Below the pieces are notes generated by a model that ran no database searches, was not told the DNA's origin, and saw only the letters and a program-made list of their open reading frames with translations. 28,200 bases of DNA, taken from assembly GCA_030526225.1 (NCBI GenBank), contig JAUNDF010000025.1, positions 1-28,200 of the forward strand, in the 5' to 3' direction. Every line of letters starts with the position of its first letter. The first letter of the stretch is position 1. Below, piece by piece: positions 7,128-27,424 of this stretch. Source of the stretch: Clostridia bacterium. GTDB lineage: Bacteria > Bacillota > Clostridia > Christensenellales > Aristaeellaceae. Both the position numbers and the translations under genes were made by a program.

Positions 7128-7184
7128 ACGGGGCACGCTCCTTTTTGTTGTATGTGGGACGAAACAGCCCACTAATTTATATCA

Positions 7185-7213
7185 ACTATAACATCGCCAT
7201 AATGGGATGTCAA
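7185..7213 (-). promoter_or_regulatory. Sigma-70/SigA-type promoter of the sugar ABC operon
   Basis: The minus strand reads TTGACA (complement of 7208-7213), a 17-nt spacer, then TATAGT (complement of 7185-7190). It lies about 55 nt upstream of the SBP start codon. Confidence 0.6.
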
Positions 7214-7225
7214 TAGCTTATGGGC

Positions 7226-7281
7226 TGCATAACAGAATTATTATGCAATATTAAAACGGTTTTGCATGGATTTATGCATAA
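7226..7281. promoter_or_regulatory. Cluster of TTATGCA half-sites (candidate regulator binding sites) upstream of the -35
   Basis: TGCATAA-N8-TTATGCA forms an inverted repeat at 7226-7247. TGCAT-N6-ATGCA lies at 7263-7278 and extends to TTATGCATAA (7272-7281). Confidence 0.35.
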
Positions 7282-7667
7282 TTTTTCACACCCCTTCTGC
7301 AGCCCGAAACGGTCGTCCTGTCGGGCGTAACCCCACGGCGTGACACCCGTGTAACACAGCCGCCGCAAACAGGTCTGCAGTCCTGTTTTGAGGAAGGTTC
7401 AAAATCATTCTGCTTTTGTTGTATTTTGCTTTTGTTTTTCGTCCGAACATGTTTTTTATCCCCTTCCCTGCCATGTCCGCTGCCCAGGGAAGACATCAGA
7501 CATTCTGCCGTGTTCTCTTGGCTGTTATCCGGTTTTGGAAGGTGGATATGAAACAAAGTTACCATACCTGTCCTCCGATTGAATCGTTCTTATGCCCGGC
7601 ATGAATTTATATGCAGAGCGTCATACGCCTTTCTGCCATAAGCAGAAGCTATCCGGAAAAAGGCGGC

Positions 7668-7705
7668 AAAAAAAGGCCTGCAATCCCGCAAAAGGGACTG
7701 CAGAC
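7668..7705 (-). terminator. Intrinsic terminator of the Lnt-GGDEF gene
   Basis: On the minus strand, CTGCAGTCCC-TTTTGC-GGGATTGCAG (one G-U pair) is followed by GGCC and T7 (complement of 7668-7674). It lies about 45 nt after the stop at 7748. Confidence 0.7.
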
Positions 7706-7747
7706 CTTGGTTTTCATATGGTTTTCGAAAAGCCCTCCCCCACCCTG

Positions 7748-10282: not shown

Positions 10283-10418
10283 ACCGGTACCTCCGTAATT
10301 TCAAATGGAGACCCCTCATCTATGTGCTTCAGTTCTTCTGCTTCGTATGTTATCAGTGATGTCAGTCAAAGGATATTGTAGCACGAAAACGGGGATGGTT
10401 CAAGGGCGGGATACTTAC

Positions 10419-10448
10419 GAGCACGACGGGCAGCCTTCAGGCCGTACT
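10419..10448. repeat. Direct repeat copy 1: 30-bp perfect duplicate of the rpsI 3' coding sequence
   Basis: GAGCACGACGGGCAGCCTTCAGGCCGTACT is identical to 19164-19193, which encodes [11 protein letters not shown] of S9 on the minus strand. The flanks of this copy are unrelated to rpsI. Confidence 0.9.
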
Positions 10449-10616
10449 CTGTCAAAAAATGCAGGCGGCTGAATGGAAATGCATAAGTTTACAAAACGAG
10501 AAAGGAGAAGGCGTGAGGGGGATTTCGGTGTGAGTTGTTGCGATTCGGACTCTGTAGTTGATTAAGCAAATCAGGAGGAAAAAGCAATGGAACGCACCTA
10601 TAACGAGATTGTCTAT

Positions 10617-10772
10617 CAATAACCCAGCAATGATTTGCTGCTCTGCCGAGTAACGCTTTAGAAGCCCGTTTTTGACTTGGATGATATATCTGTCGTCCGG
10701 TTCAGGAATGGGTTTCTCTTGTGTCCTGAACACCGCTATTTTGCTGGGTTTTGCAATTTCTAAAGCGTTACT
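10617..10772. repeat. AT-rich IR-bounded element, copy A
   Basis: A perfect 15-bp inverted repeat AGTAACGCTTTAGAA (10649-10663) / TTCTAAAGCGTTACT (10758-10772) bounds the element. A second interleaved pair is AACCCAGCAA (10621-10630) / TTGCTGGGTT (10741-10750). The inner hairpin is GTTCAGGA (10700-10707) / TCCTGAAC (10724-10731). It shares TAACCCAGCAA and a roughly 35-nt block (10666-10700) with copy B at 18075-18197. Confidence 0.7.
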
Positions 10773-10861
10773 GAAGATGTTATTTCAATGTTAAGGAGGT
10801 GTATTTTCGCATTTTAGATAAAAATGCTTCGTTAAACGGCACATTTCGTTAAAAATCCCCC

Positions 10862-11605
10862 TCACCTGTGCGCCTTCATGCGGGCTTCCCGCTCGGCCAT
10901 GTATTTTTCAAAGCCCTCAAAGGTGAGGTTGACGATTAGCTCTGGAGGAAAGCCGATTTCGTCCAGCATTTCCAACGCCCGGGGGACCCTGCCGATGTTA
11001 GCTGCATAGTGGGCATCGCTGTCCACGCAGACGCGCACATCATACCGCATGCACAGCTGAGCAATCTTCCGGCAGGTGGTGTCGCAGCCGGGGCGGGCGG
11101 TAAAGGAGTTGTTGTTGATTTCAATCAGCCTGCCATGCTGTGCCGCCGCTTTGACCAGGCGTTCCTCCTATACGGGATAGGCAGGGATGCCGGGGTGGCC
11201 AATCAGGTCCACGCAGTCATGGGCCATGGCGCGGATGTATGCCTCGGTGTGGGCTTCACGGCTGATGAAGGGCATGATGTTCCTGTGCATGCTGGCAATG
11301 CCGAAGCGGAACAGCGGAAAGGCGGTTTCGGGGTAATCATCCAGATGGCCTTCCGTATCCCAAAGGTTGAACTCCATCCCCGGGTATACGCGGATGCCTT
11401 CGATGGATTCGGGCAGCTGAACAAAGGACCAGGGTGCCCAAATGGTCCCGCTTCCCTTCATGCGGGGGCCGTGGTCCGTCATGCAGATGGCCTTCATGCC
11501 GGATTTCGCAGCAGCGGCACAGTTTTCCTGCAGGGTAGACCAGGCATGGCCTGACATCACCGTGTGGGTATGGGCATCAACCTGAATTTTCGCATGCTTT
11601 AACAT
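10862..11605 (-). CDS. YcdX-like PHP-family phosphoesterase with one in-frame TAG at 11168-11170 (pseudogene under code 11, or recoded)
   Basis: The N-terminal ORF (MLKHAKIQVDAHTHTVMSGHAWS...GHPGIPAYPV) and the C-terminal part (EERLVKAAAQHGRLIEINNNSF...DSDAHYAANIG...) are in the same frame. A single TAG separates them. Together they make 247 codons, colinear with the roughly 245-aa YcdX. The final stop is TGA. Confidence 0.8.
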
Positions 11606-15339: not shown

Positions 15340-16206
15340 ATGTCTGCCGCAAATGTCAGAAAAGCAAGAAACCGCATTGCCAGCGAAAAGATGACCCCCT
15401 TGATGGCTCTGATTATCTTTGCCCTGGTCATCTACTTCGTCATCATCGCCTATCCCCTGATTTGGATGCTCTTCAACTCCCTGAAGACCTACAAGGAAAT
15501 CTACAAGGACATCTGGGCCCTGCCCTCTGTCCCCCAATGGCAAAACTTCACCGATGCCTGGGAGCACGGCATCTCCAACTACTTCCTCAACTCCCTGCTG
15601 GTAACCGGCTCCACGGTGATTGGCGCCATCCTGTTTGCCGCCCTTGCCGCCTACGCGCTGGCACGGTTCCGCTTCCGGGGAAGCCAAATCATTTTCGCCA
15701 TGATCATGGGCGGCATGATGCTCTCCCCCCAGGTGACGCTGATTCCCCTGTACAAGATCATTCAGACCCTGAACATTCACAATACCTTCTGGGCGCTGAT
15801 TATCCCCTATATCGCCTACCGCATCCCGCTGATTGTGATGCTCGTGCGCTCCCACTTCCTGACCATCCCCAAGGAAATGGAAGAATCCGCCATTCTTGAC
15901 GGCTGCTCCAGCTTCGGCGTGTTCACCCGCATTTTCCTGCCCATGAGCAAGCCGATTCTGCTCACCGCCACCATCCTTGTGGCCTACTATGCATGGAACG
16001 AGTTCATGTACGCGCTGATTTTCATCGACAGCGACAAGCTGCGCACCATCCCGGTGGGCCTGATGAATCTGCGTGACGCGCTGCTGACCAACTGGGGCGT
16101 GCTGCTGGCCGGCATGACCATTTCCGCCCTGCCGCTGATTATCCTGTTCCTGCTGATGCAGAAGCAGTTTATCCGGGGCATGACCGCCGGTGCCGTAAAG
16201 GGCTGA
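15340..16206 (+). CDS. frlM: CUT1 ABC permease (MalG-like)
   Basis: 288-aa ORF starting 4 nt after the frlN stop. It has the EAA loop EESAILDGCSSFGVFTRIFLPMSKP. Confidence 0.8.
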   Translation: MSAANVRKARNRIASEKMTPLMALIIFALVIYFVIIAYPLIWMLFNSLKTYKEIYKDIWALPSVPQWQNFTDAWEHGISNYFLNSLLVTGSTVIGAILFAALAAYALARFRFRGSQIIFAMIMGGMMLSPQVTLIPLYKIIQTLNIHNTFWALIIPYIAYRIPLIVMLVRSHFLTIPKEMEESAILDGCSSFGVFTRIFLPMSKPILLTATILVAYYAWNEFMYALIFIDSDKLRTIPVGLMNLRDALLTNWGVLLAGMTISALPLIILFLLMQKQFIRGMTAGAVKG

Positions 16207-17879: not shown

Positions 17880-17897
17880 ATCGCTCCTCTTTACATC

Positions 17898-17936
17898 GGC
17901 GTCATCCGCGGTGCATTCCGCAGATGGCGCCTTTTT
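17898..17936 (+). terminator. Intrinsic terminator after frlR
   Basis: The stem GGCGTCAT (17898-17905) / ATGGCGCC (17924-17931) has one G-U pair. It is followed by T5 (17932-17936). Confidence 0.6.
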
Positions 17937-18074
17937 GCATTTGTGCCAAGGTGTATGACAAAATGCTCCCTACCCGTGCCTTACACAAAGCAGCCCAGGG
18001 CTTTGCAGGACAACGGGCAGGGAGCTTTTATGCATTAGTATAGATGATGCTGCGCTGTGTGTTCTTACCCTTTT

Positions 18075-18197
18075 GTAACGCATTAGAGGTTCTGTAACCC
18101 AGCAAAACCAAGGGGTTCAGGGCGGTGAAAACGGCTGTTTTTGATGGGGATGATATATTCTTCGTCCGTGGCAAAAATCGGAATTCTAACGCGTTAT
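18075..18197. repeat. AT-rich IR-bounded element, copy B
   Basis: An imperfect inverted repeat GTAACGCATTAGA (18075-18087) / TCTAACGCGTTAT (18185-18197) matches 11 of 13 positions. TAACCCAGCAA lies at 18095-18105. The block 18135-18171 is about 80% identical by eye to 10666-10700 of copy A. Confidence 0.65.
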
Positions 18198-18259
18198 CCA
18201 ATTGCACTCGTTTTCCTGTTTAGCATTTCAACTTTAATGGAATATGCATCTATGGGATT

Positions 18260-18294
18260 GAACTGCGCAGTTAACAAATGCGCGTTCCTTTTTT
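18260..18294 (+). terminator. Orphan plus-strand intrinsic terminator with no annotated gene upstream
   Basis: GAAC(T)GCGCA (18260-18269) / TGCGCGTTC (18279-18287) forms a 9-bp stem with one bulge. After one C comes T6 (18289-18294). Confidence 0.5.
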
Positions 18295-18334
18295 GAACTG
18301 GCCGCAACGCTTCCCTTTATAATGCGTCATCAGG

Positions 18335-19051
18335 TTAATTAATAATGTCTGCACCCTCATCAACCCATATCAAGAGTTTTTCAACTTCCCAAAATGATTT
18401 CCCGTCAAAAACTGGTGCAATTAAGAAATGTTTTTTCAATTCATCCACATCGGTCCCTGATTTTTCAAATACACGCTCATAATCAATCAGGCTTCCTTCA
18501 CCAGTCACAAACTGGTGATATAATCGTCCATCGGATTCTGCCTTCCAACGGTCTACAAAGCAGGTTGTCGTGTTCGTTTCAAAATCAGTTACAGCTTCGC
18601 ACCAGTATACATATCCCTGATAGAAAACAGAAGCCCCCATGTACCATCCAGTATCCAAAAACTGTGAAAGTTTGCCGTTTTTCACAAGCCATACACCTCC
18701 AAGTATTTCTTGAACTTCTTGTACAATGGATGCGCTTTTCGCCTTCACGGAAAAGGACACCGTTTCGGTCAAGGAAGTACAGGAACAGCGCCGGAATTCT
18801 ACGCCTCGTTTGGACTTAACTCGGTATCCCACGGAAATAATCATGTCAAGGCTGTAATACTCGGTCATGTGCGTATGTGTTTTTCCTTCCATCGCACCAT
18901 GCTGAGTGGTAGTCGCAAATTTTGCGACAACCTCTTCCCTGTCCAGTTCTTCCTTCAGCGCATTGGCGATATGCTTGACGACGGTCTTCACATCCCGGCC
19001 AAAGAGCTCTGCAAGCTGATTGCGGTTCAGCCAGACGGTTTCCGCATCCAT
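18335..19051 (-). CDS. Chimeric ORF: truncated RhuM-family N-terminal segment fused to an unrelated, AT-richer C-terminal region of unknown function
   Basis: Residues 1-88 (MDAETVWLNRNQLAELFGRDVKTV...YYSLDMIISVGYRVKSKRGVEFRR) match the conserved RhuM core. They lack the usual roughly 25 N-terminal residues. After FRR the sequence no longer resembles RhuM, and base composition is visibly AT-richer from about 18335 to 18790. There is no RBS. A TTGTGA-17-TATACT promoter ends 6 nt before the ATG. Confidence 0.5.
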   Translation of the reverse strand: MDAETVWLNRNQLAELFGRDVKTVVKHIANALKEELDREEVVAKFATTTQHGAMEGKTHTHMTEYYSLDMIISVGYRVKSKRGVEFRRCSCTSLTETVSFSVKAKSASIVQEVQEILGGVWLVKNGKLSQFLDTGWYMGASVFYQGYVYWCEAVTDFETNTTTCFVDRWKAESDGRLYHQFVTGEGSLIDYERVFEKSGTDVDELKKHFLIAPVFDGKSFWEVEKLLIWVDEGADIIN

Positions 19052-19086
19052 GTCCGCAGTATATCACAAACTGTCATACCTCACAA

Positions 19087-20210: not shown

Positions 20211-21965
20211 TCATTCCGCGCACAGATGCTCCGCGTATTTCCGCGCCATCTCGTACCAGTTGTACAGGGATTCGCCCATCACCGCGCCGCAGCTTTCCCG
20301 GTACATGGCCCATACGAACCAGTACCATGCGATGAGGGCGGTGTAGGCCATGTAGTGGAACATCAGCGTTTCGTCGCGATTGCCCTCCAGATAGGCAAGG
20401 ATGAACCGCTCCGCCGTGTCAAAATCGTACATGGCATCCACGATGTAATAGCCCACGTCCACACCGGGGTCGGCATAGCCGGCGTATTCCCAGTCGATGA
20501 GAATCACATCCCCGTCGGGCTTGAGCATCCAGTTGTGGCAGTAGGTGTCGCCGTGGCAGAAGCAGGGCTGAACGCCATCCCCCAGGGTCTTCTCATACAG
20601 GGCGTGAATTTTTGCCTTCAGGCCCTCAAAGGGCGCCATGCAGTTGGGGTCCTTTTGGCGCAGCAGCGCTTCCATGGCCAGCGCATCCTCCCAGGGGCGC
20701 AGACCGTAATCCACCTTCACCGGCAGGCTGTGGAGCCGCCGGAGCATGGCCACCACCTTTTCGCTGTCGGTCTCGCTGGCATAATCCGGTTCGCGGAAGA
20801 CCGGCACGTAGCGGGAAATCTTCCAGCCCTCCTGCACATCGGCGCAGATGAAGGTGGGGTCGATGCCCCTTTCCCGGGCAATCTCCAGCGAGCGGCGCTC
20901 GTTTTCCCGGCTGATGATGTTCGCCGTGCCGTCCCCGGGGTGGCGGTAGATGTAGTCCTCATCGCCGATGCGGAACACGAAGGAGGTGTTGGTCAGCCCC
21001 TCGGAAATGTTGCGGAAGCCGATGATGTCCTTTTCGCTGCAGCCGAACACCTTCGCGATGTTGCCCATGATGCGGCTGTGGGTTTCCCCCAGATAGGCAT
21101 CGTCAAAGCGGCGCAGCTCCTCAAAATAGTCGAACTCAAAGATGCAGTCCGGGCCGTATTTCTTCATATATAACGGTGGCAGCTGCTCCAGCTGGTCCTT
21201 CACCATCCATTCCCAGAACATGTGGTCATAGATGCCCGTGTGCAGGTCCTCCTCCGCCAGACGCAGGAACGCCTCCGCGAAATCCGCCGTCCAGAAGACA
21301 TGCCCCGCCATGATGGTGCCGCCGTTTTCCCCCGGGCGCATGGACAGGATGCGGCCGTCCTCCCCGCAGGTGACGTACATCTCGTTGATTCTGTCCGCGG
21401 TGGCAATGCCGGCATTGAAGCTGCGGTACTCAAAGGTGCGGAAGGGGCTCACCGTGAGGTAATGGTCACAGCAGCACAGGTAGGCATCACACAAAGCATC
21501 ACCGGCCAGCCGGATGGACTCGATGTTGTTCTTCACGCTGTAGCGCTCGTTGAACACGAACCGTACATCATACTTGTCCCGCAGGTAGAAGAACATCTCC
21601 GCCTTGTAGCCCAGCACCACGGTGATATCGGTGATGCCGGCCTCCCGCAGCTGCTTGATTTGCCGCTCAATCAGCCGCTCGCCCTTCACCTCAAACAGGC
21701 CCTTGGGCTGCTCCAGGGACAGGGGAATGAACCGGGTGGACGGCCCCGCCGCCAGAATCACCGCACCCTTGACGCGGTACGGTTCCAGCGCCTCCTCACC
21801 CTTTTGGGTGATGGCCGGGGGATTCACCGTCACCAGACCCTCCTGCGCCAGCCGGGGCAGCAGCGCGGCCTCGTCACAGCCTTCCGCAGAGGGAAGCACC
21901 GTCCGCCCCCGTGCGCGGTCGTACAAATCGTTCAGCAGGCAAAACGCCTGATAGGTCAGTTCCAT
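20211..21965 (-). CDS. Bifunctional LicC-like nucleotidyltransferase / LicA-like choline (amino-alcohol) kinase with an N-terminal wHTH-like extension
   Basis: 584-aa ORF with an AAGGAG RBS. The nucleotidyltransferase region has GAVILAAGPSTRFIPLSLEQPKGL. The C-terminal kinase fold has HGDTYCHNWMLKPDGDVILIDWEYAGYADPGVDVG (Brenner/APH-type motifs). Stop is TGA. Confidence 0.8.
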   Translation of the reverse strand: MELTYQAFCLLNDLYDRARGRTVLPSAEGCDEAALLPRLAQEGLVTVNPPAITQKGEEALEPYRVKGAVILAAGPSTRFIPLSLEQPKGLFEVKGERLIERQIKQLREAGITDITVVLGYKAEMFFYLRDKYDVRFVFNERYSVKNNIESIRLAGDALCDAYLCCCDHYLTVSPFRTFEYRSFNAGIATADRINEMYVTCGEDGRILSMRPGENGGTIMAGHVFWTADFAEAFLRLAEEDLHTGIYDHMFWEWMVKDQLEQLPPLYMKKYGPDCIFEFDYFEELRRFDDAYLGETHSRIMGNIAKVFGCSEKDIIGFRNISEGLTNTSFVFRIGDEDYIYRHPGDGTANIISRENERRSLEIARERGIDPTFICADVQEGWKISRYVPVFREPDYASETDSEKVVAMLRRLHSLPVKVDYGLRPWEDALAMEALLRQKDPNCMAPFEGLKAKIHALYEKTLGDGVQPCFCHGDTYCHNWMLKPDGDVILIDWEYAGYADPGVDVGYYIVDAMYDFDTAERFILAYLEGNRDETLMFHYMAYTALIAWYWFVWAMYRESCGAVMGESLYNWYEMARKYAEHLCAE

Positions 21966-21977
21966 GGCTCGTCTCCT

Positions 21978-23546
21978 TTATGCCTTTGCGGATGAAAACA
22001 TGGCCGCCACAAGGCTTGGCACCACCGGCCGTTTGCAGGATGCATAGGGCTTGCCCGCCAGCAGCAGCTGCTCCACCTGCAGGGTGTGCAGTTTGTCCGC
22101 CGGGGTCTCGTAGGGGTTGCCGGACAGGATGACCATGTCGGCCACCTTGCCCATTTCCAGGGTGCCGCGGGTGTCATCATCAAAGGCGGCGGCATAGCCG
22201 TTGACGGTGCACATGCGCAGTGCCTCCTGCACCGTCAGCCGCTGGGCCGGGTTGGTGTGGTTCACTGCCTTGTCCATCCACGCGATGGGGTCAGGCTCGG
22301 TGCAGGGTGCATCGGAGCCGGCGGAAATCATCACGCCCTTGTCCCAGAAATCCCGCAGGGGATTGAGGGCTTCGGCGCGCTCCGGCCCCAGAATCTGCGC
22401 CAGATATTCATCCGGCTCCTGCTTCCAGCCGATAAAGGCAGACTGCACCGGCATCTGAATGTGGTACTGCTGACAGATGGCCAGCCCCTCCGCCGTGGGC
22501 AGGCAGTCATGGATGATGCCGTGGCGGTGGTCCTCCCGGGGGAAGTCATCCAGCGCGGCCTTCAGGCAGCGGCAGGCCTGGTCAAAGGCACGGTCGCCGA
22601 TGGCATGCAGCTCGATTTGCAGCCCCGCCCGGTTGGCCTTTTTGCAGAACGCCGTCACCTTTTCATCATCGTAATACAATACGCCAAGGTCCTTGCCGTC
22701 ATCCGCATAGGGCTGATTCATGGCCGCATCGTGGGAGCCGAAGCAGCCATCCAGCGCACACTGGAAGCATCCGCCGATGCGGGGCAGACCGCGCCGGAGC
22801 GCCGTGTTCACATCCAGCGACTGGGGGAATACCCGCACCTGAAAGCCGTTTTTCAGGGACTTGGCAAACAGCATCTCCATGGTGATGTCCAGATTCATGG
22901 GGAAGCCTACGCCGCTGACAGTGTGCACACAGCCGATGCCCTTCTTCGCCAGATCATCCACCGCCTGCTGCATATGCCCGATGAGCCCCAGCACGGAAAT
23001 GGAGCCGGTGATGTCATCGGAGACCTTGAAGAACGCCTCCTGATTCATCTCCCCCGTGTCGGGATGATAGCCCCGCAAGCCCTCCACCTTGCGCTTCAGC
23101 CTTGCCAGCAGCTTGCTGTTGACGATGCAGGCGTGGCCGTCATACTTGACCACCATCACCTCCCGGTCGGGCACCACGCTGTCCAGCTCCTCCCGGGAAA
23201 TCAGCCGCCCTTCCGCCACGGAATAGGGCGATGCCCCGAAGGCAATGAGGGTCCTGCCCTTTTCCCGGGCGGCAAAATCCCCCAGCAGCTGCATAATCTC
23301 CTTGTTGGAGACGGCCTCCATCACATTCAGCCCCGCATGGAAAATGGCATAGGAGGCCAGATGCTCATGGGTATCGGCAAAGGACGGCACCAGCGCCCGG
23401 TCGCCCAGGTCAATCCGTTCAGCAGATTGATACTCCTCCGGCAGCGTATCGCCGGTATACACGATTTTTCCCCCATCCTCCACCAGATAGCGGACCACCC
23501 GGTTGTCCCTGTCCACGGTGAGAATGGCACCGGTATAGCACTTCAT
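21978..23546 (-). CDS. Amidohydrolase-family (amidohydrolase 3, metal-dependent TIM-barrel) hydrolase
   Basis: The ORF is open to 23564. I prefer the third ATG (MKCYTGAILTV) because GAAAGGA lies 8 nt upstream. It has the HxH metal motif FADTHEHL and ...HAIGDRA...SAGSDAPC. Its stop lies 12 nt before the downstream lic gene start. Confidence 0.8.
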   Translation of the reverse strand: MKCYTGAILTVDRDNRVVRYLVEDGGKIVYTGDTLPEEYQSAERIDLGDRALVPSFADTHEHLASYAIFHAGLNVMEAVSNKEIMQLLGDFAAREKGRTLIAFGASPYSVAEGRLISREELDSVVPDREVMVVKYDGHACIVNSKLLARLKRKVEGLRGYHPDTGEMNQEAFFKVSDDITGSISVLGLIGHMQQAVDDLAKKGIGCVHTVSGVGFPMNLDITMEMLFAKSLKNGFQVRVFPQSLDVNTALRRGLPRIGGCFQCALDGCFGSHDAAMNQPYADDGKDLGVLYYDDEKVTAFCKKANRAGLQIELHAIGDRAFDQACRCLKAALDDFPREDHRHGIIHDCLPTAEGLAICQQYHIQMPVQSAFIGWKQEPDEYLAQILGPERAEALNPLRDFWDKGVMISAGSDAPCTEPDPIAWMDKAVNHTNPAQRLTVQEALRMCTVNGYAAAFDDDTRGTLEMGKVADMVILSGNPYETPADKLHTLQVEQLLLAGKPYASCKRPVVPSLVAAMFSSAKA

Positions 23547-23624
23547 GTTGATCATCCTTTCCATAGGGGTTACAATTCCGAAAATCCTGCGAAATTCATC
23601 GCTTCGGGCAAATTCCCAGCAGAA

Positions 23625-23677
23625 ACCTCATCCGTCACGCCGCAAGCGGCGCGCCACCTTCCCCAGAGGGGAAGGCA
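23625..23677. repeat. 53-bp inverted repeat, left arm, flanking the DUF559 gene
   Basis: ACCTCATCCGTCACGCCGCAAGCGGCGCGCCACCTTCCCCAGAGGGGAAGGCA contains two hairpins: CGCCGC-AA-GCGGCG and CCTTCCCC-AGA-GGGGAAGG. It matches the reverse complement of 24206-24258 at 49 of 53 positions. Confidence 0.85.
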
Positions 23678-23735
23678 ATTTTTGTTTACGCCTTGGCGAA
23701 TGATATCTCTGTATTCGTCTTCATCTGATTCTTGT

Positions 23736-24134
23736 TTATTCTTCCGGACCTTCTCCGTAAGGGTTTGCCATGAAATATTTGCTTCTCTTCTGTGTAACCG
23801 TATCAATTTCAAGACAGACATCGTCAAAATGAGAATCAATTTGGCTGTTTGTAAAACGAAGCACCTGCAAATGGTATCGTTTCAGCATCTGTGTACGCTC
23901 TTCGTCATATGCGGCCCCCTGCTTTGTAAAGTGCTGCATGCCATCCACCTCAACAACAAGCTTTGCTGCCGCACAATAGAAATCAACAATAAAGCAGTCT
24001 ATTTGCTTCTGCCGCCGGAACTGTATCGGATATAGTCGCAAGTACTCATACCAAAGCCGTTTTTCCTAAGGCGTCATATTTCTGCGCAAATCTTGAGCCG
24101 CCTGTTTATTCTTTCTGTCATAGTGAATAATCAC
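23736..24134 (-). CDS. DUF559 (Vsr-like) endonuclease-domain protein with one in-frame TAG at 24066-24068
   Basis: A GTG start at 24132-24134 has a GAGGGA RBS 5 nt upstream. Translation is VIIHYDRKNKQAAQDLRRNMTP[TAG]EKRLWYEYLRLYPIQFRRQKQIDCFIVDFYCAAAKLVVEVDGMQH...LRFTNSQI. It is colinear with typical DUF559 proteins (MTxxExxLW, FRRQ, DFYC, VExDG). Stop is TAA. Confidence 0.75.
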
Positions 24135-24205
24135 GCAATATCCCTCACAAAATTGAACGATACCAGAACCTCATCCGGCCGAACTGCGTTCAGTTCCACT
24201 TGCTT

Positions 24206-24258
24206 TGCCTTCCCCGCTGGGGAAGGTGGCGCGGCGCCTGCGCCGTGACGGATGAGGT
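24206..24258. repeat. 53-bp inverted repeat, right arm
   Basis: TGCCTTCCCCGCTGGGGAAGGTGGCGCGGCGCCTGCGCCGTGACGGATGAGGT. Both hairpins are preserved, and the CGGCGC-AG-GCGCCG stem carries compensatory changes relative to the left arm. A partial third copy, AACCTCATCCG, lies at 24168-24178. Confidence 0.85.
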
Positions 24259-24323
24259 CCTCGCAGCAGAAAGGGTCTTCCACAAGGGATTCACGCCCCT
24301 CAACAGTCCCCCTCTTCCATCCA

Positions 24324-25223
24324 TCACAAATACGCCGCATCCACTTCCTGCAGTTCCGCGTAGTTGTCGATTTCCATCACTGCGCCTTTGGGGCAGGGGC
24401 GGATTTCCACGCGGTAGTTGTCCTTGTGGGTCACCAGGGGGATGTACTCCCAGAACAGGTCATGGCCGCCCTCGGCGCGGTAGGCCTCCTGCCAGTCACG
24501 GCGGAGCTTGCGGCAGTCCTCCGCGTCCCAGTAGGTGATTTCGTACTGATTGTAGCAGCGGGTGCCGCCCTTGCGGTAGTTGGCGGCATAGCCTCCCTCC
24601 CAGTCGAAGCACCAGTCATCGGTCTCGAGGGAATAGCTGGCCAGATAGTTGCTGCAGTAGTGGTATTTGCGGATGACAGCGGGGTCGGTGAGCAGCAAAT
24701 CCCCGGCGCAGATGTAGGTGCGGTCGATGCTGTCCAGCGCCGCCAAAGCAGAGGAGATGTTGTTCTCCGTTTCGTACTTGTCGTTGTCCGCAAAGCGGAT
24801 GGCGGGGTACTTGTCCTTCAGCACATCGAACTTGTCCTTCAGGTAGCCGCGGACAATGGTGATGTCCGTAATGCCCACCGCCAGAAAGGCATCCAGCAGG
24901 CGGTCAATCATGCGGATGCCGTGGACGGTCACCAGCGGCTTGGGGGTGGTCAGGGTCACGGGGACCATGCGGGAGCCGAAGCCGGCGGCGAAAATCACCG
25001 CCCGTCTGGCGCGGTAGGGCTCCAGTGCCTCCAGCCCTGCAGGGGTCACAGCCAGCGCATCCCCCGTATCGCACAGCAGACCGCGGGCAAGCAAATCATC
25101 CCGCACGGATGTATATCTGCTGCCGGAAAGGCACAGTGCCTCGGCGCTCTCCCGCCATGCACGGCGGGGCAGGCCGCTTCTTTCCGCCAAAGCCAAAACC
25201 TCAAAGGAATATCTGTCAAGCAT
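24324..25223 (-). CDS. LicC-like nucleotidyltransferase (phospho-alcohol cytidylyltransferase family) with an N-terminal wHTH-like extension
   Basis: 299-aa ORF with an AGGAGG RBS 7 nt upstream. AVIFAAGFGSRMVPVTLTTPKPL is the nucleotidyltransferase P-loop. The N-terminal roughly 75 aa is paralogous to the 584-aa protein (..GLEALEPYRARRAVIFAAG versus ..GEEALEPYRVKGAVILAAG). Confidence 0.8.
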   Translation of the reverse strand: MLDRYSFEVLALAERSGLPRRAWRESAEALCLSGSRYTSVRDDLLARGLLCDTGDALAVTPAGLEALEPYRARRAVIFAAGFGSRMVPVTLTTPKPLVTVHGIRMIDRLLDAFLAVGITDITIVRGYLKDKFDVLKDKYPAIRFADNDKYETENNISSALAALDSIDRTYICAGDLLLTDPAVIRKYHYCSNYLASYSLETDDWCFDWEGGYAANYRKGGTRCYNQYEITYWDAEDCRKLRRDWQEAYRAEGGHDLFWEYIPLVTHKDNYRVEIRPCPKGAVMEIDNYAELQEVDAAYL

Positions 25224-25330: not shown

Positions 25331-25380
25331 ATGGAAGAATTATCCTGACATATTTCTTTTTTGGTATAGAAGGAGGCAAT

Positions 25381-26751
25381 ATGCTTTCATCCGCCAGGCA
25401 AAAAAAGCGTGATTTCCGGCCCGAGCTGGTGATGCCGCTGGGCTTTCTTGTGCTGATTCTTCTGGGCATGGTCGTGCTGGCCCTGCCCTGCGCGACGGTG
25501 AAGGGCAAGAGCATCGGCCTGTTCAACGCACTGTTCACCGCCACCTCCGCCGTGTGCGTCACCGGCCTTGTAGCCGTGGATACCGGCACCACCTTCTCCA
25601 TGTTCGGGCAGTCGGCGCTGCTGGTGCTCATTCAGGTGGGCGGTCTGGGCTTTATGGTCTTCGCCACGCTGGTGATGCGCGCTCTTGGCATGCGCCTGAC
25701 GCTCCATGAGCGGATGATGATGCAGGAGGCCTCCGGCGCCTCCTCCATGTCCCAAATCCGCCGCATGATTCTCCGCTACGGTCGATTAGCCGTGTGCATC
25801 GAGCTGATTGGCGCGCTGCTGTTGGCCATCCGCTTTGTGCCCATGTACGGTCCGGGGAAGGGCATCTGGTTTTCCGTGTTCCACTCCGTCTCCGCCTTCT
25901 GCAACGCCGGCTTTGACCTGTTTGGCCGCTATTCCAGCCTGACGGGCTTCTGCAACGATCCGCTGGTAATTTTCACCATCAGCGGGCTGATTATCACCGG
26001 CGGCCTCGGCTTTGCGGTGATGCTGGAGATGTCCGGCAAGCGCTTCCGTTGGCGGGAGTTCTCCCTGCACACAAGGGTCGTGCTGCTGATGTCCGTCATC
26101 CTCACCCTGGGCGGCACCCTGCTGTACGCAGTCCTTTAGTGGAACAACCCGCAAACCCTTTCCGGCAGCGCCATTTCCGGTGACGGCAGCAGGCTGATGA
26201 ACGCCTTCTTCCAGTCAGTCACCATGCGCACCGCCGGCTTCAACTCCATCGACCTTAGCCGGATGCACGGCTCCAGCAAGCTCATCAGCGTGGTGCTGAT
26301 GTTCATCGGCGCGTCTCCCGCCTCCACCGGCGGCGGCGTGAAGACCACCACCATCGCCCTTGTGTTCCTGCTGCTGCACAGCGTGGCCAAGGGTCAGGAG
26401 GATGTGAACTGCATGCACAAGCGCATCCCCGAGCGGATGGTCAAGCGGGCCGTGAGCATCGTGACCATCGGCATGCTCAGCACCCTTGGCTGTGCCATCG
26501 CCCTGTCCATCACCCAGAAGGACACCGTGCCGATTATCGACCTGCTGTTTGAATCCGCCAGTGCCGCCGCCACCGTGGGCGTATCCTCCGCCGGCACGCC
26601 AACCTTCCGCATGCTGAGCAAAATCATCCTCATTCCCATTATGTTCGGCGGCCGCGTAGGCTCCCTGACACTGGCCACCGCCTTTGCCAGCCGCCATTCC
26701 ACCCGCAAGAACCTGATGAAATACGCCGAAGAAAGCATCATGATCGGTTAA
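25381..26751 (+). CDS. ktrB: KtrB/TrkH-family K+ transporter membrane subunit with one in-frame TAG at 26137-26139
   Basis: Two same-frame ORFs (25381-26136 and 26140-26751) are joined only by a TAG: ...LGGTLLYAVL[TAG]WNNPQTLSGSAISGDGSRLMNAFFQSVTMRTAGFNSIDLS...ASPASTGGGVKTTT... The total of 456 codons is full-length and colinear with KtrB/TrkH. It has an AGGAGG RBS and a final TAA stop. Confidence 0.85.
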
Positions 26752-26764
26752 AGGAGAGATTGAT

Positions 26765-27424
26765 ATGAAAAAGCAGAGAAAGCAGTTTCTGGTCATCGGT
26801 CTGGGCCGCTTCGGCTCCAGCGTGGCCAAGGCTTTGAGCGAGCTGGGCCACGAGGTGCTGGCCCTGGACAAGCAGCAGGAGCTGGTGGATGCCATGGCCC
26901 CCTATGTGACCGAGGCCATCTGCGCCGATTCCTCCGACGAAGATGTCCTGCGCTCCGTGGAGCCCTCCGTGTTTGATGCGGCCGTGGTCTCCATCGGTCA
27001 GGACACCCGCGGCTCCATCCTCATCACCGTGCTGTGCAAGGAAATGGGCTGCCCCTACGTCATCGCCAAGGCACAGGATGACCTCCACGGCAAGGTGCTG
27101 ACCAAGGTGGGCGCGGACAAGGTGGTCTACCCCGAGCGCGACATGGGTCAGCGGCTGGCCCGGAGCCTGAGCATGAACCACTTCATCGACATGATGGAGC
27201 TGGCCGACAATTTCGAGATGGTGGAATGCGCCGTCCCCGACGAGTGGGAAGGCCGCTCCATTCTGGAGCTGAACATCCGCCGCAACTACGGCATCAGCAT
27301 CGTGGCCATCAAGCGGGGCAGCAAGCTGATTCCCTCCCCCACCGCCGAGGAGATGTTCTCCGCCGACGATGTGCTGCTGATGCTGGGCGAAACGGACAAA
27401 ATTTCCAAGATTATCGGCAGGTGA
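26765..27424 (+). CDS. ktrA: KtrA/TrkA-type RCK-domain K+ uptake regulatory subunit
   Basis: 219-aa ORF with an AGGAGAG RBS. It has the Rossmann motif FLVIGLGRFGSSVAKAL and a TrkA-C domain. Its TGA stop overlaps the next ATG. Confidence 0.9.
   Translation: MKKQRKQFLVIGLGRFGSSVAKALSELGHEVLALDKQQELVDAMAPYVTEAICADSSDEDVLRSVEPSVFDAAVVSIGQDTRGSILITVLCKEMGCPYVIAKAQDDLHGKVLTKVGADKVVYPERDMGQRLARSLSMNHFIDMMELADNFEMVECAVPDEWEGRSILELNIRRNYGISIVAIKRGSKLIPSPTAEEMFSADDVLLMLGETDKISKIIGR

Follow-up and report, generated by a model that had tools for sequence, protein, structure and literature searches.

Does an amber codon in the middle of a conserved gene end its protein, or can it be read as an amino acid? 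This question is raised by the K+ transporter gene ktrB on a 28,200-nucleotide stretch of DNA from a Clostridia bacterium (Christensenellales; Aristaeellaceae; GenBank assembly GCA_030526225.1, contig JAUNDF010000025.1, positions 1 to 28,200 of the forward strand), hereafter called the window. The window is a chromosomal segment of 56.6% GC that carries rplM-rpsI, ABC transporter genes and ktrAB, and an earlier note on it had pointed to an amber codon in mid-ktrB. Two further genes of the window, for a PHP phosphatase and a DUF559 endonuclease, also contain a TAG in frame. We tentatively suggest, at a probability that we place a little short of even, that UAG does not terminate translation effectively in this organism and that ribosomes instead insert Glu or Gln at it.

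The amber codon of ktrB

The ktrB gene runs from an ATG, preceded by the ribosome-binding site (RBS) AAGGAGG at 25370-25376, to a TAA, with a single TAG in the frame of that ATG between them (Table 1). The codons around it are CTG TAC GCA GTC CTT TAG TGG AAC AAC CCG. The alignment to the Pfam TrkH profile (PF02386) that the earlier note had called for found both halves of the gene: the 252-aa part before the TAG, the length that had been given for the truncated product, matches profile positions 56-240 (E = 4.8e-24), and the 203-aa part after it matches positions 313-495 (E = 6e-34), co-linearly and in the same frame. True reading frames in the window can be distinguished by a GC content at third codon positions (GC3) of ~0.8, and the GC3 of ktrB is coding-like on both sides of the TAG, at 0.80 before and 0.86 after. 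With Glu placed at the TAG, the 456-aa KtrB matches NCBIfam TIGR00933 over positions 1-391 in a single stretch at 323 bits, just below the cut-off of 331 bits for this family, and matches the B. subtilis KtrB structures with E = 5e-83. All four pore-loop glycine motifs (CVTGL, CNAGF, RTAGF and ATVGV) are present and aligned to those of B. subtilis KtrB. The two co-linear matches in one frame and the end-to-end match to TIGR00933 and KtrB indicate one gene broken by one codon, and two chance open reading frames (ORFs) in place of one ktrB were rejected on this ground. No second stop and no frameshift was found in ktrB after the TAG. The family match, the four pore motifs and the adjacent ktrA all identify the gene as KtrB/TrkH, and it is a bona fide ktrB in all respects but its frame, which is interrupted under the standard code.

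Termination at the TAG would drop the pore loops of D3 and D4. Since the TAG is located past helix M1 of D3, the truncated product would consist of D1, D2 and one extra helix. The description in the earlier note of a half-transporter with two of the four repeats is therefore right about the retention of D1 and D2 but omits the extra D3 helix. The partner gene ktrA follows intact with its own RBS, as had been stated, and the gene order ktrB-ktrA-hydrolase is kept in two related loci, L031 and L032.

The column of the TAG is Glu in 120/120 database homologues and 15/15 genome loci (135/135). It is followed in the homologues by W (115/120) and then by N-N-P and T-L, and the motif L-E-(W/Y/F)-N-N-P-x-T-L, which the earlier note had given, is thus correct. 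GC-rich relatives mostly use GAG at this column, which makes the ktrB TAG a single-base G-to-T change. Judged by these alignments, the TAG is a genuine one-base GAG-to-TAG replacement of an invariant Glu codon. Elsewhere in the protein, KtrB departs from the homologues at 9/139 of the columns with a conservation of 95% or more, no excess over its divergence.

Table 1. Positions of the amber-containing genes and of other features in the window (nucleotides counted from the first letter of the window)
Feature	Position	Strand	Remarks
ktrB, whole gene	25381-26751	+	ATG 25381; TAA 26749-26751; one in-frame TAG
ktrB before TAG, 252 codons	25381-26136	+	D1 (CVTGL), D2 (CNAGF), helix M1 of D3
In-frame TAG (amber) in ktrB	26137-26139	+	invariant Glu of L-E-W-N-N-P-x-T-L motif
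ktrB after TAG, 203 codons and TAA	26140-26751	+	D3 pore loop RTAGF, D4 ATVGV, GRVGSLT; all intact
First in-frame ATG after TAG (MNAFFQSV...)	26197-26199	+	sole candidate restart; AGCAGG 3 nt upstream, poor RBS
ktrA, RCK-domain partner (TrkA_N and TrkA_C)	26765-27424	+	intact; RBS AAGGAGAG at 26751-26758
YcdX-like PHP phosphatase	10862-11605	-	in-frame TAG 11170-11168; downstream DSDAH metal site intact
DUF559 endonuclease	23736-24134	-	GTG start 24134, TAA end 23736; in-frame TAG 24068-24066; downstream catalytic core intact
Cassette with DUF559 gene	23625-24258		54-nt inverted repeats 23625-23678 and 24205-24258
Three-gene cluster	20211-25223	-	LicC/LicA-like fusion, Amidohydro_3 enzyme, MobA-like nucleotidyltransferase
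Carbon-nitrogen hydrolase domain with C-terminal GGDEF diguanylate cyclase domain, 850 aa	7748-10300	-	uncommon fusion

In-frame stops and gene ends across the window

In total, 24 genes (8,059 codons) were called in the window, at a coding density of ~87%. Their in-frame stops are three TAG, no TAA and no TGA, and none of them has a frameshift. One and the same stop codon thus recurs inside 3/24 otherwise intact conserved genes, with exactly one TAG in each of ktrB, the PHP phosphatase gene and the DUF559 gene, a density of ~1 per 2,700 codons. Three TAG cases had been counted before, and the two outside ktrB were located on the minus strand (Table 1). The codons that end the 24 genes are TAA in 14 and TGA in 10, and TAG in none.

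The PHP phosphatase gene encodes a PHP domain before the TAG and a PHP_C domain after it, and its product aligns with E. coli YcdX straight across the TAG (E = 8e-37). The TAG column holds D in 94 homologues, E in 11 and H in 8; E is found in 3/8 of the closest homologues, and the closest relatives have GAT, GAA or GAG. The GenBank record of this protein is a 145-aa N-terminal fragment (MDO4483812.1; P0133), which was also the sole same-organism match of our searches. Truncated PHP homologues were considered as hidden TAG cases and rejected, being frameshifts or chimeras of a common species.

The TAG column of the DUF559 protein holds E in 83 homologues, Q in 16 and A in 6, with the Glu share given as 72%, and the two closest homologues have CAG. 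This gene has a lower GC3, of 0.45. The gene lies between inverted repeats that are 93% complementary, and the motif ACCTCATCCGTC...CCTTCCCC-NNN-GGGGAAGG also flanks its closest homologue, in L033. This suggests that the inverted-repeat unit is a small mobile cassette. The cassette interrupts the three-gene cluster at 20211-25223 between its second and third genes.

Glu is the only residue compatible with the TAG columns of all three genes, a statement that covers three sites only. The catalytic or pore motifs downstream of the TAG are intact in every case. Signs of pseudogene decay (extra stops, frameshifts and lost motifs) were not seen in any of the three, a state with which a very recent nonsense mutation is still compatible.

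Terminators were also counted in relatives. In the Clostridia family that shares this KtrB, TAG ends ~2/146 genes, both of them in L031 (2/20), and no TAG terminator was found in L001-L004, L017, L019, L029, L032, L033 or L036. TAG makes up 7/25 stops (~28%) in the more distant GC-rich loci L005, L006 and L012. The scarcity of TAG at gene ends across the family is unusual and may predispose it to amber capture.

Sense codon or nonsense mutation

The case for readthrough is that 3/24 otherwise undamaged genes carry a TAG, all at Glu-compatible columns, with no other type of lesion. If UAG is translated, ribosomes would insert an amino acid at it, most compatibly Glu and possibly Gln, and full-length KtrB, PHP phosphatase and DUF559 protein would still be produced. 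The predicted KtrB peptide across the TAG would be LLYAVL-[E/Q]-WNNPQTLSGSAISGDGSR. The decoder would be a tRNA with a CUA anticodon, and its source may be a single-step CUG-to-CUA mutant of tRNA-Gln. Clostridia mostly lack glutaminyl-tRNA synthetase, and their tRNA-Gln is charged with Glu first by a non-discriminating glutamyl-tRNA synthetase; such a mutant could thus bring in either Glu or Gln at UAG. Release factor 1 (RF1) may also, or instead, have become weak or disappeared. With TAG almost never used to end genes in this family, the cell could tolerate either change. The route would be codon capture in the sense of Osawa and Jukes. A more specific proposal, to which we give distinctly less than an even chance, is that UAG has become a captured sense codon, likeliest for Glu, in this lineage, a relative of Christensenellales/Aristaeellaceae, at an early, low-density stage reached via tRNA(CUA) and RF1 loss or weakening.

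Under the standard code, the three TAGs would be ordinary nonsense mutations, each the result of a recent point mutation in a dispensable gene (from GAG in two of them, and from CAG or GAG in the third). The genes would be young pseudogenes or population polymorphisms that have taken no further damage yet. ktrB would encode a non-functional 252-aa fragment, ktrA would be orphaned and K+ uptake would proceed via another system. We regard this as a strong contender, though with a likelihood appreciably below even. By default, TAG is a stop in bacteria; in-frame stops are also common in bacterial genes as polymorphisms of short duration (Belinky et al. 2021, PMC7918605). However, the probability of at least three nonsense genes among 24 is only 2e-4 to 1e-2 at normal per-gene rates of 0.5-2%, and 3/24 disrupted genes in the window against 2/~146 in the relatives gives a Fisher p = 0.02. 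The pattern of hit codons (E, E and E-or-Q) has p ~0.012 under random nonsense mutation. Moreover, decay fast enough to make three such genes likely should also have left frameshifts, stops of the TGA or TAA type and a reduced coding density. The window shows none of these, and neither ktrA nor the motifs downstream of the TAGs are damaged.

Several observations weigh against readthrough and, for the most part, speak for nonsense mutation. The sample of in-frame TAGs is three sites on one contig from one sample. With the GC3-rich codon usage of the window, a random nonsense mutation produces TAG more often than any other stop (in 56-61% of cases), with GAG and CAG as major sources, and three TAGs among three stops have p ~0.2; that all three are TAG was therefore rejected as evidence of recoding. 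The absence of TAG from the gene ends of the window (0/24) matches the family background of 2/~146, with P = 0.71 at the family baseline of ~1.4%, and was rejected as evidence in the same way. The TAG columns are not uniformly Glu, the PHP column being mostly D and the nearest DUF559 homologues having Q. All three genes are dispensable or accessory, and the DUF559 gene sits on the mobile cassette. Neither the window nor any of the fetched loci yielded a tRNA with a CUA anticodon, the kind that would act as a suppressor; the sole tRNA of the window is tRNA-Arg(CCT), and an Rfam search of the window gave nothing else. The genes of the window do not include prfA, which encodes RF1. Among 2.7 million screened assemblies, no bacterium is reported to have reassigned TAG to sense, and our literature search on bacterial UAG reassignment found none.

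The relatives point in the same direction. The closest of those available, with PHP proteins 77-81% identical (L017, L029 and L036) and KtrB proteins 57-61% identical (L001-L004, L031 and L032), carry sense codons at all three TAG sites and have no in-frame TAG in intact genes, so that the trait is not shared by a coherent clade. TAG works as a true terminator in L031. In Candidatus Egerieenecus merdigallinarum (L019), a 540-aa gene has a TAG at 16154-16156 where two relatives have GAG. The same gene in the sister strain L018 has a TGG-to-TGA change at codon 194 and a terminator changed from TAA to TAG (~6375 and ~7413), and it appears to have been inactivated independently in the two strains. 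Because L018 breaks the same gene with TGA and L031 stops on TAG, the L019 case looks like the ordinary loss of a dispensable gene, and a clade-wide reassignment based on it was rejected; the case shows that GAG-to-TAG polymorphisms come about naturally in this family at the level of strains. No second genome of the species was found in any collection searched: there was no exact match to KtrA, S9 or either KtrB fragment in these collections, a KtrB scan of GTDB genomes and JGI metagenomes gave matches of at most 58% identity, and a KtrB search of 5.8 billion proteins gave at most 61%.

The data fit readthrough and nonsense mutation about equally well, and readthrough has a slight edge, by a narrow margin. 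We prefer it slightly because its rival needs an improbable clustering of one type of lesion in an otherwise healthy region. The factual parts of the earlier note have thus held, while the conclusion that it implies, of an interrupted ktrB that is not simply a tolerated pseudogene, has been neither established nor disproved.

A sequencing or assembly artefact is very improbable. The TAGs would then be consensus errors, arising for instance where oxidative damage turned G into T in a thinly covered region, or where the consensus of a metagenome-assembled genome (MAG) had adopted the allele of a minority strain. Such an artefact would suit the origin of the sequence, which is one MAG contig from one sample of an organism met only once in the protein collection, and G to T would account for two of the three changes. 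However, the Logan contig L016, an independent assembly of SRR24915835, agrees with the window at every position over 3,708 bp (100% identity), the PHP TAG among them; this re-confirmation covers the PHP TAG and not the ktrB TAG. L016 probably comes from the same sample and so confirms the DNA without representing an independent strain. No sequence motif common to the surroundings of the three TAGs was found in a check for systematic error or methylation, and together with the identity of L016 this makes a consensus artefact unlikely. Three errors at stop-creating positions would further imply ~60 consensus errors of this kind in 28 kb, and neither frameshifts nor other damage to conserved proteins of the window was seen.

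Insertion of pyrrolysine at UAG by an organism with pylTSBCD, as in Code 34 archaea, is slightly less credible still. Some Firmicutes encode pyrrolysine. Few or no TAG terminators together with scattered in-frame TAGs are the pattern of pyrrolysine-decoding archaea, but in bacteria pyrrolysine is known only from a handful of enzymes (10.1101/2024.09.30.615893). An invariant Glu and acidic or amide columns fit a bulky Lys derivative poorly, and the window contains neither a methylamine methyltransferase gene nor a pyl gene. No recoding RNA structure shared by the three TAGs was found downstream of them (fold z-scores -2.0, +0.8 and +0.5). Selenocysteine, which shares this low estimate, also fits poorly: there is no shared stem-loop resembling a selenocysteine insertion sequence and no Cys in any TAG column.

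The least probable explanation is a functional split transporter, with a stop at the TAG, a restart at the in-frame ATG 19 codons downstream, at the conserved MNAFF motif, and two fragments that assemble into a working KtrB: that ATG has only the weak Shine-Dalgarno-like AGCAGG at a 3-nt spacing, in keeping with the earlier remark that it has no clear RBS, the break would fall inside D3 between its first helix and the pore loop and lose 19 residues including the invariant E-W-N-N-P, none of ~135 KtrB homologues is split, and the PHP and DUF559 TAGs would be left unexplained.

Neighbouring genes and known genetic codes

Other features of the window lie outside this question. The first gene of the cluster at 20211-25223 is a nucleotidyltransferase fused to a choline/aminoglycoside kinase, and the MobA-like gene is the second nucleotidyltransferase of that cluster. 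The gene for the 850-aa hydrolase-GGDEF protein sits between two non-coding gaps of ~560 bp (7182-7747 and 10301-10861). A low-GC island at 17880-19063 adjoins rpsI-rplM and contains a 242-codon ORF. Its similarity to the RhuM virulence-protein family is confined to residues 45-101, which align with positions 2-55 of the 252-position profile. The ORF is a remnant, truncated or fused, that probably derives from a mobile element. This region was considered as a fourth in-frame TAG case and rejected, the fragment being truncated with no TAG involved.

The pattern of in-frame TAGs in the window is not assignable to any known recoding system, and its closest relatives do not form a clade that shares it. 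We know of no natural bacterial lineage that has accumulated chromosomal ambers by suppressor-type tolerance. In E. coli, strains with supE-type suppressors or with RF1 deleted do tolerate in-frame UAG, with tRNA(CUA) or near-cognates outcompeting termination, which a cell can afford if TAG terminates few of its genes (PMC4434889); these are laboratory strains. Single stops in conserved genes, mostly at the scale of population polymorphisms and with TAG/CAG examples, have been described in bacteria, and low-level readthrough of them has been suggested (PMC7918605). Those are isolated events per genome region, whereas the window has them in 3/24 neighbouring genes and as TAG only.

Among established codes, that of the crAss-like and Lak gut phages (code 15, TAG to Gln) resembles the pattern in having ambers inside intact genes, with TAG not used as a terminator (PMC9523058, PMC7886860). 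The gut or animal-host setting is also alike, and the phage mechanism is a tRNA(CUA) suppressor. In contrast to those phage genomes, which have many TAGs per gene decoded as Gln, the window belongs to a chromosomal contig (rplM-rpsI) with one TAG per gene, Glu fits best and no such tRNA was found. Code 34 archaea, in which every TAG is pyrrolysine, similarly have rare in-frame TAGs over diverse genes and few or no TAG terminators; they are archaeal, need the pyl machinery and have proteomic proof, whereas the residues at the TAG columns of the window are acidic or amide, and pyl genes were not seen there. The bacterial UGA codes, with UGA read as Trp in code 4 (Mycoplasmatales, Eggerthellaceae and others) and as Gly in code 25, share a stop codon at conserved positions of housekeeping-type genes that has gone from gene ends (PMC13462651, PMC8629427). 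They differ in that the codon is UGA and not UAG; moreover, whole clades share them, the reassigned codon is dense in the genes and the tRNA has been identified. In peritrich ciliates and Blastocrithidia (UAR to Glu), UAG is read as Glu by an anticodon-mutated tRNA-Glu (PMC12153298), although these codes belong to eukaryotic nuclei and reassign UAA as well.

If the three TAGs are nonsense mutations, the finding is an ordinary one in which this strain has just lost one K+ uptake system. It would also mean that the presence of TAG only, and never at gene ends, is by itself no evidence of recoding in GC3-rich genomes that are poor in TAG terminators. Standard annotation already truncates or drops such genes, as the deposition of the PHP protein at 145 aa illustrates. 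If UAG is translated, this would be the first known bacterial chromosome with amber as a sense codon, and its natural amber-decoding tRNA/synthetase solution would be of interest for genetic code expansion. It would offer a rare snapshot of codon capture, in which a codon vanished from gene ends across the family and then returned inside genes.

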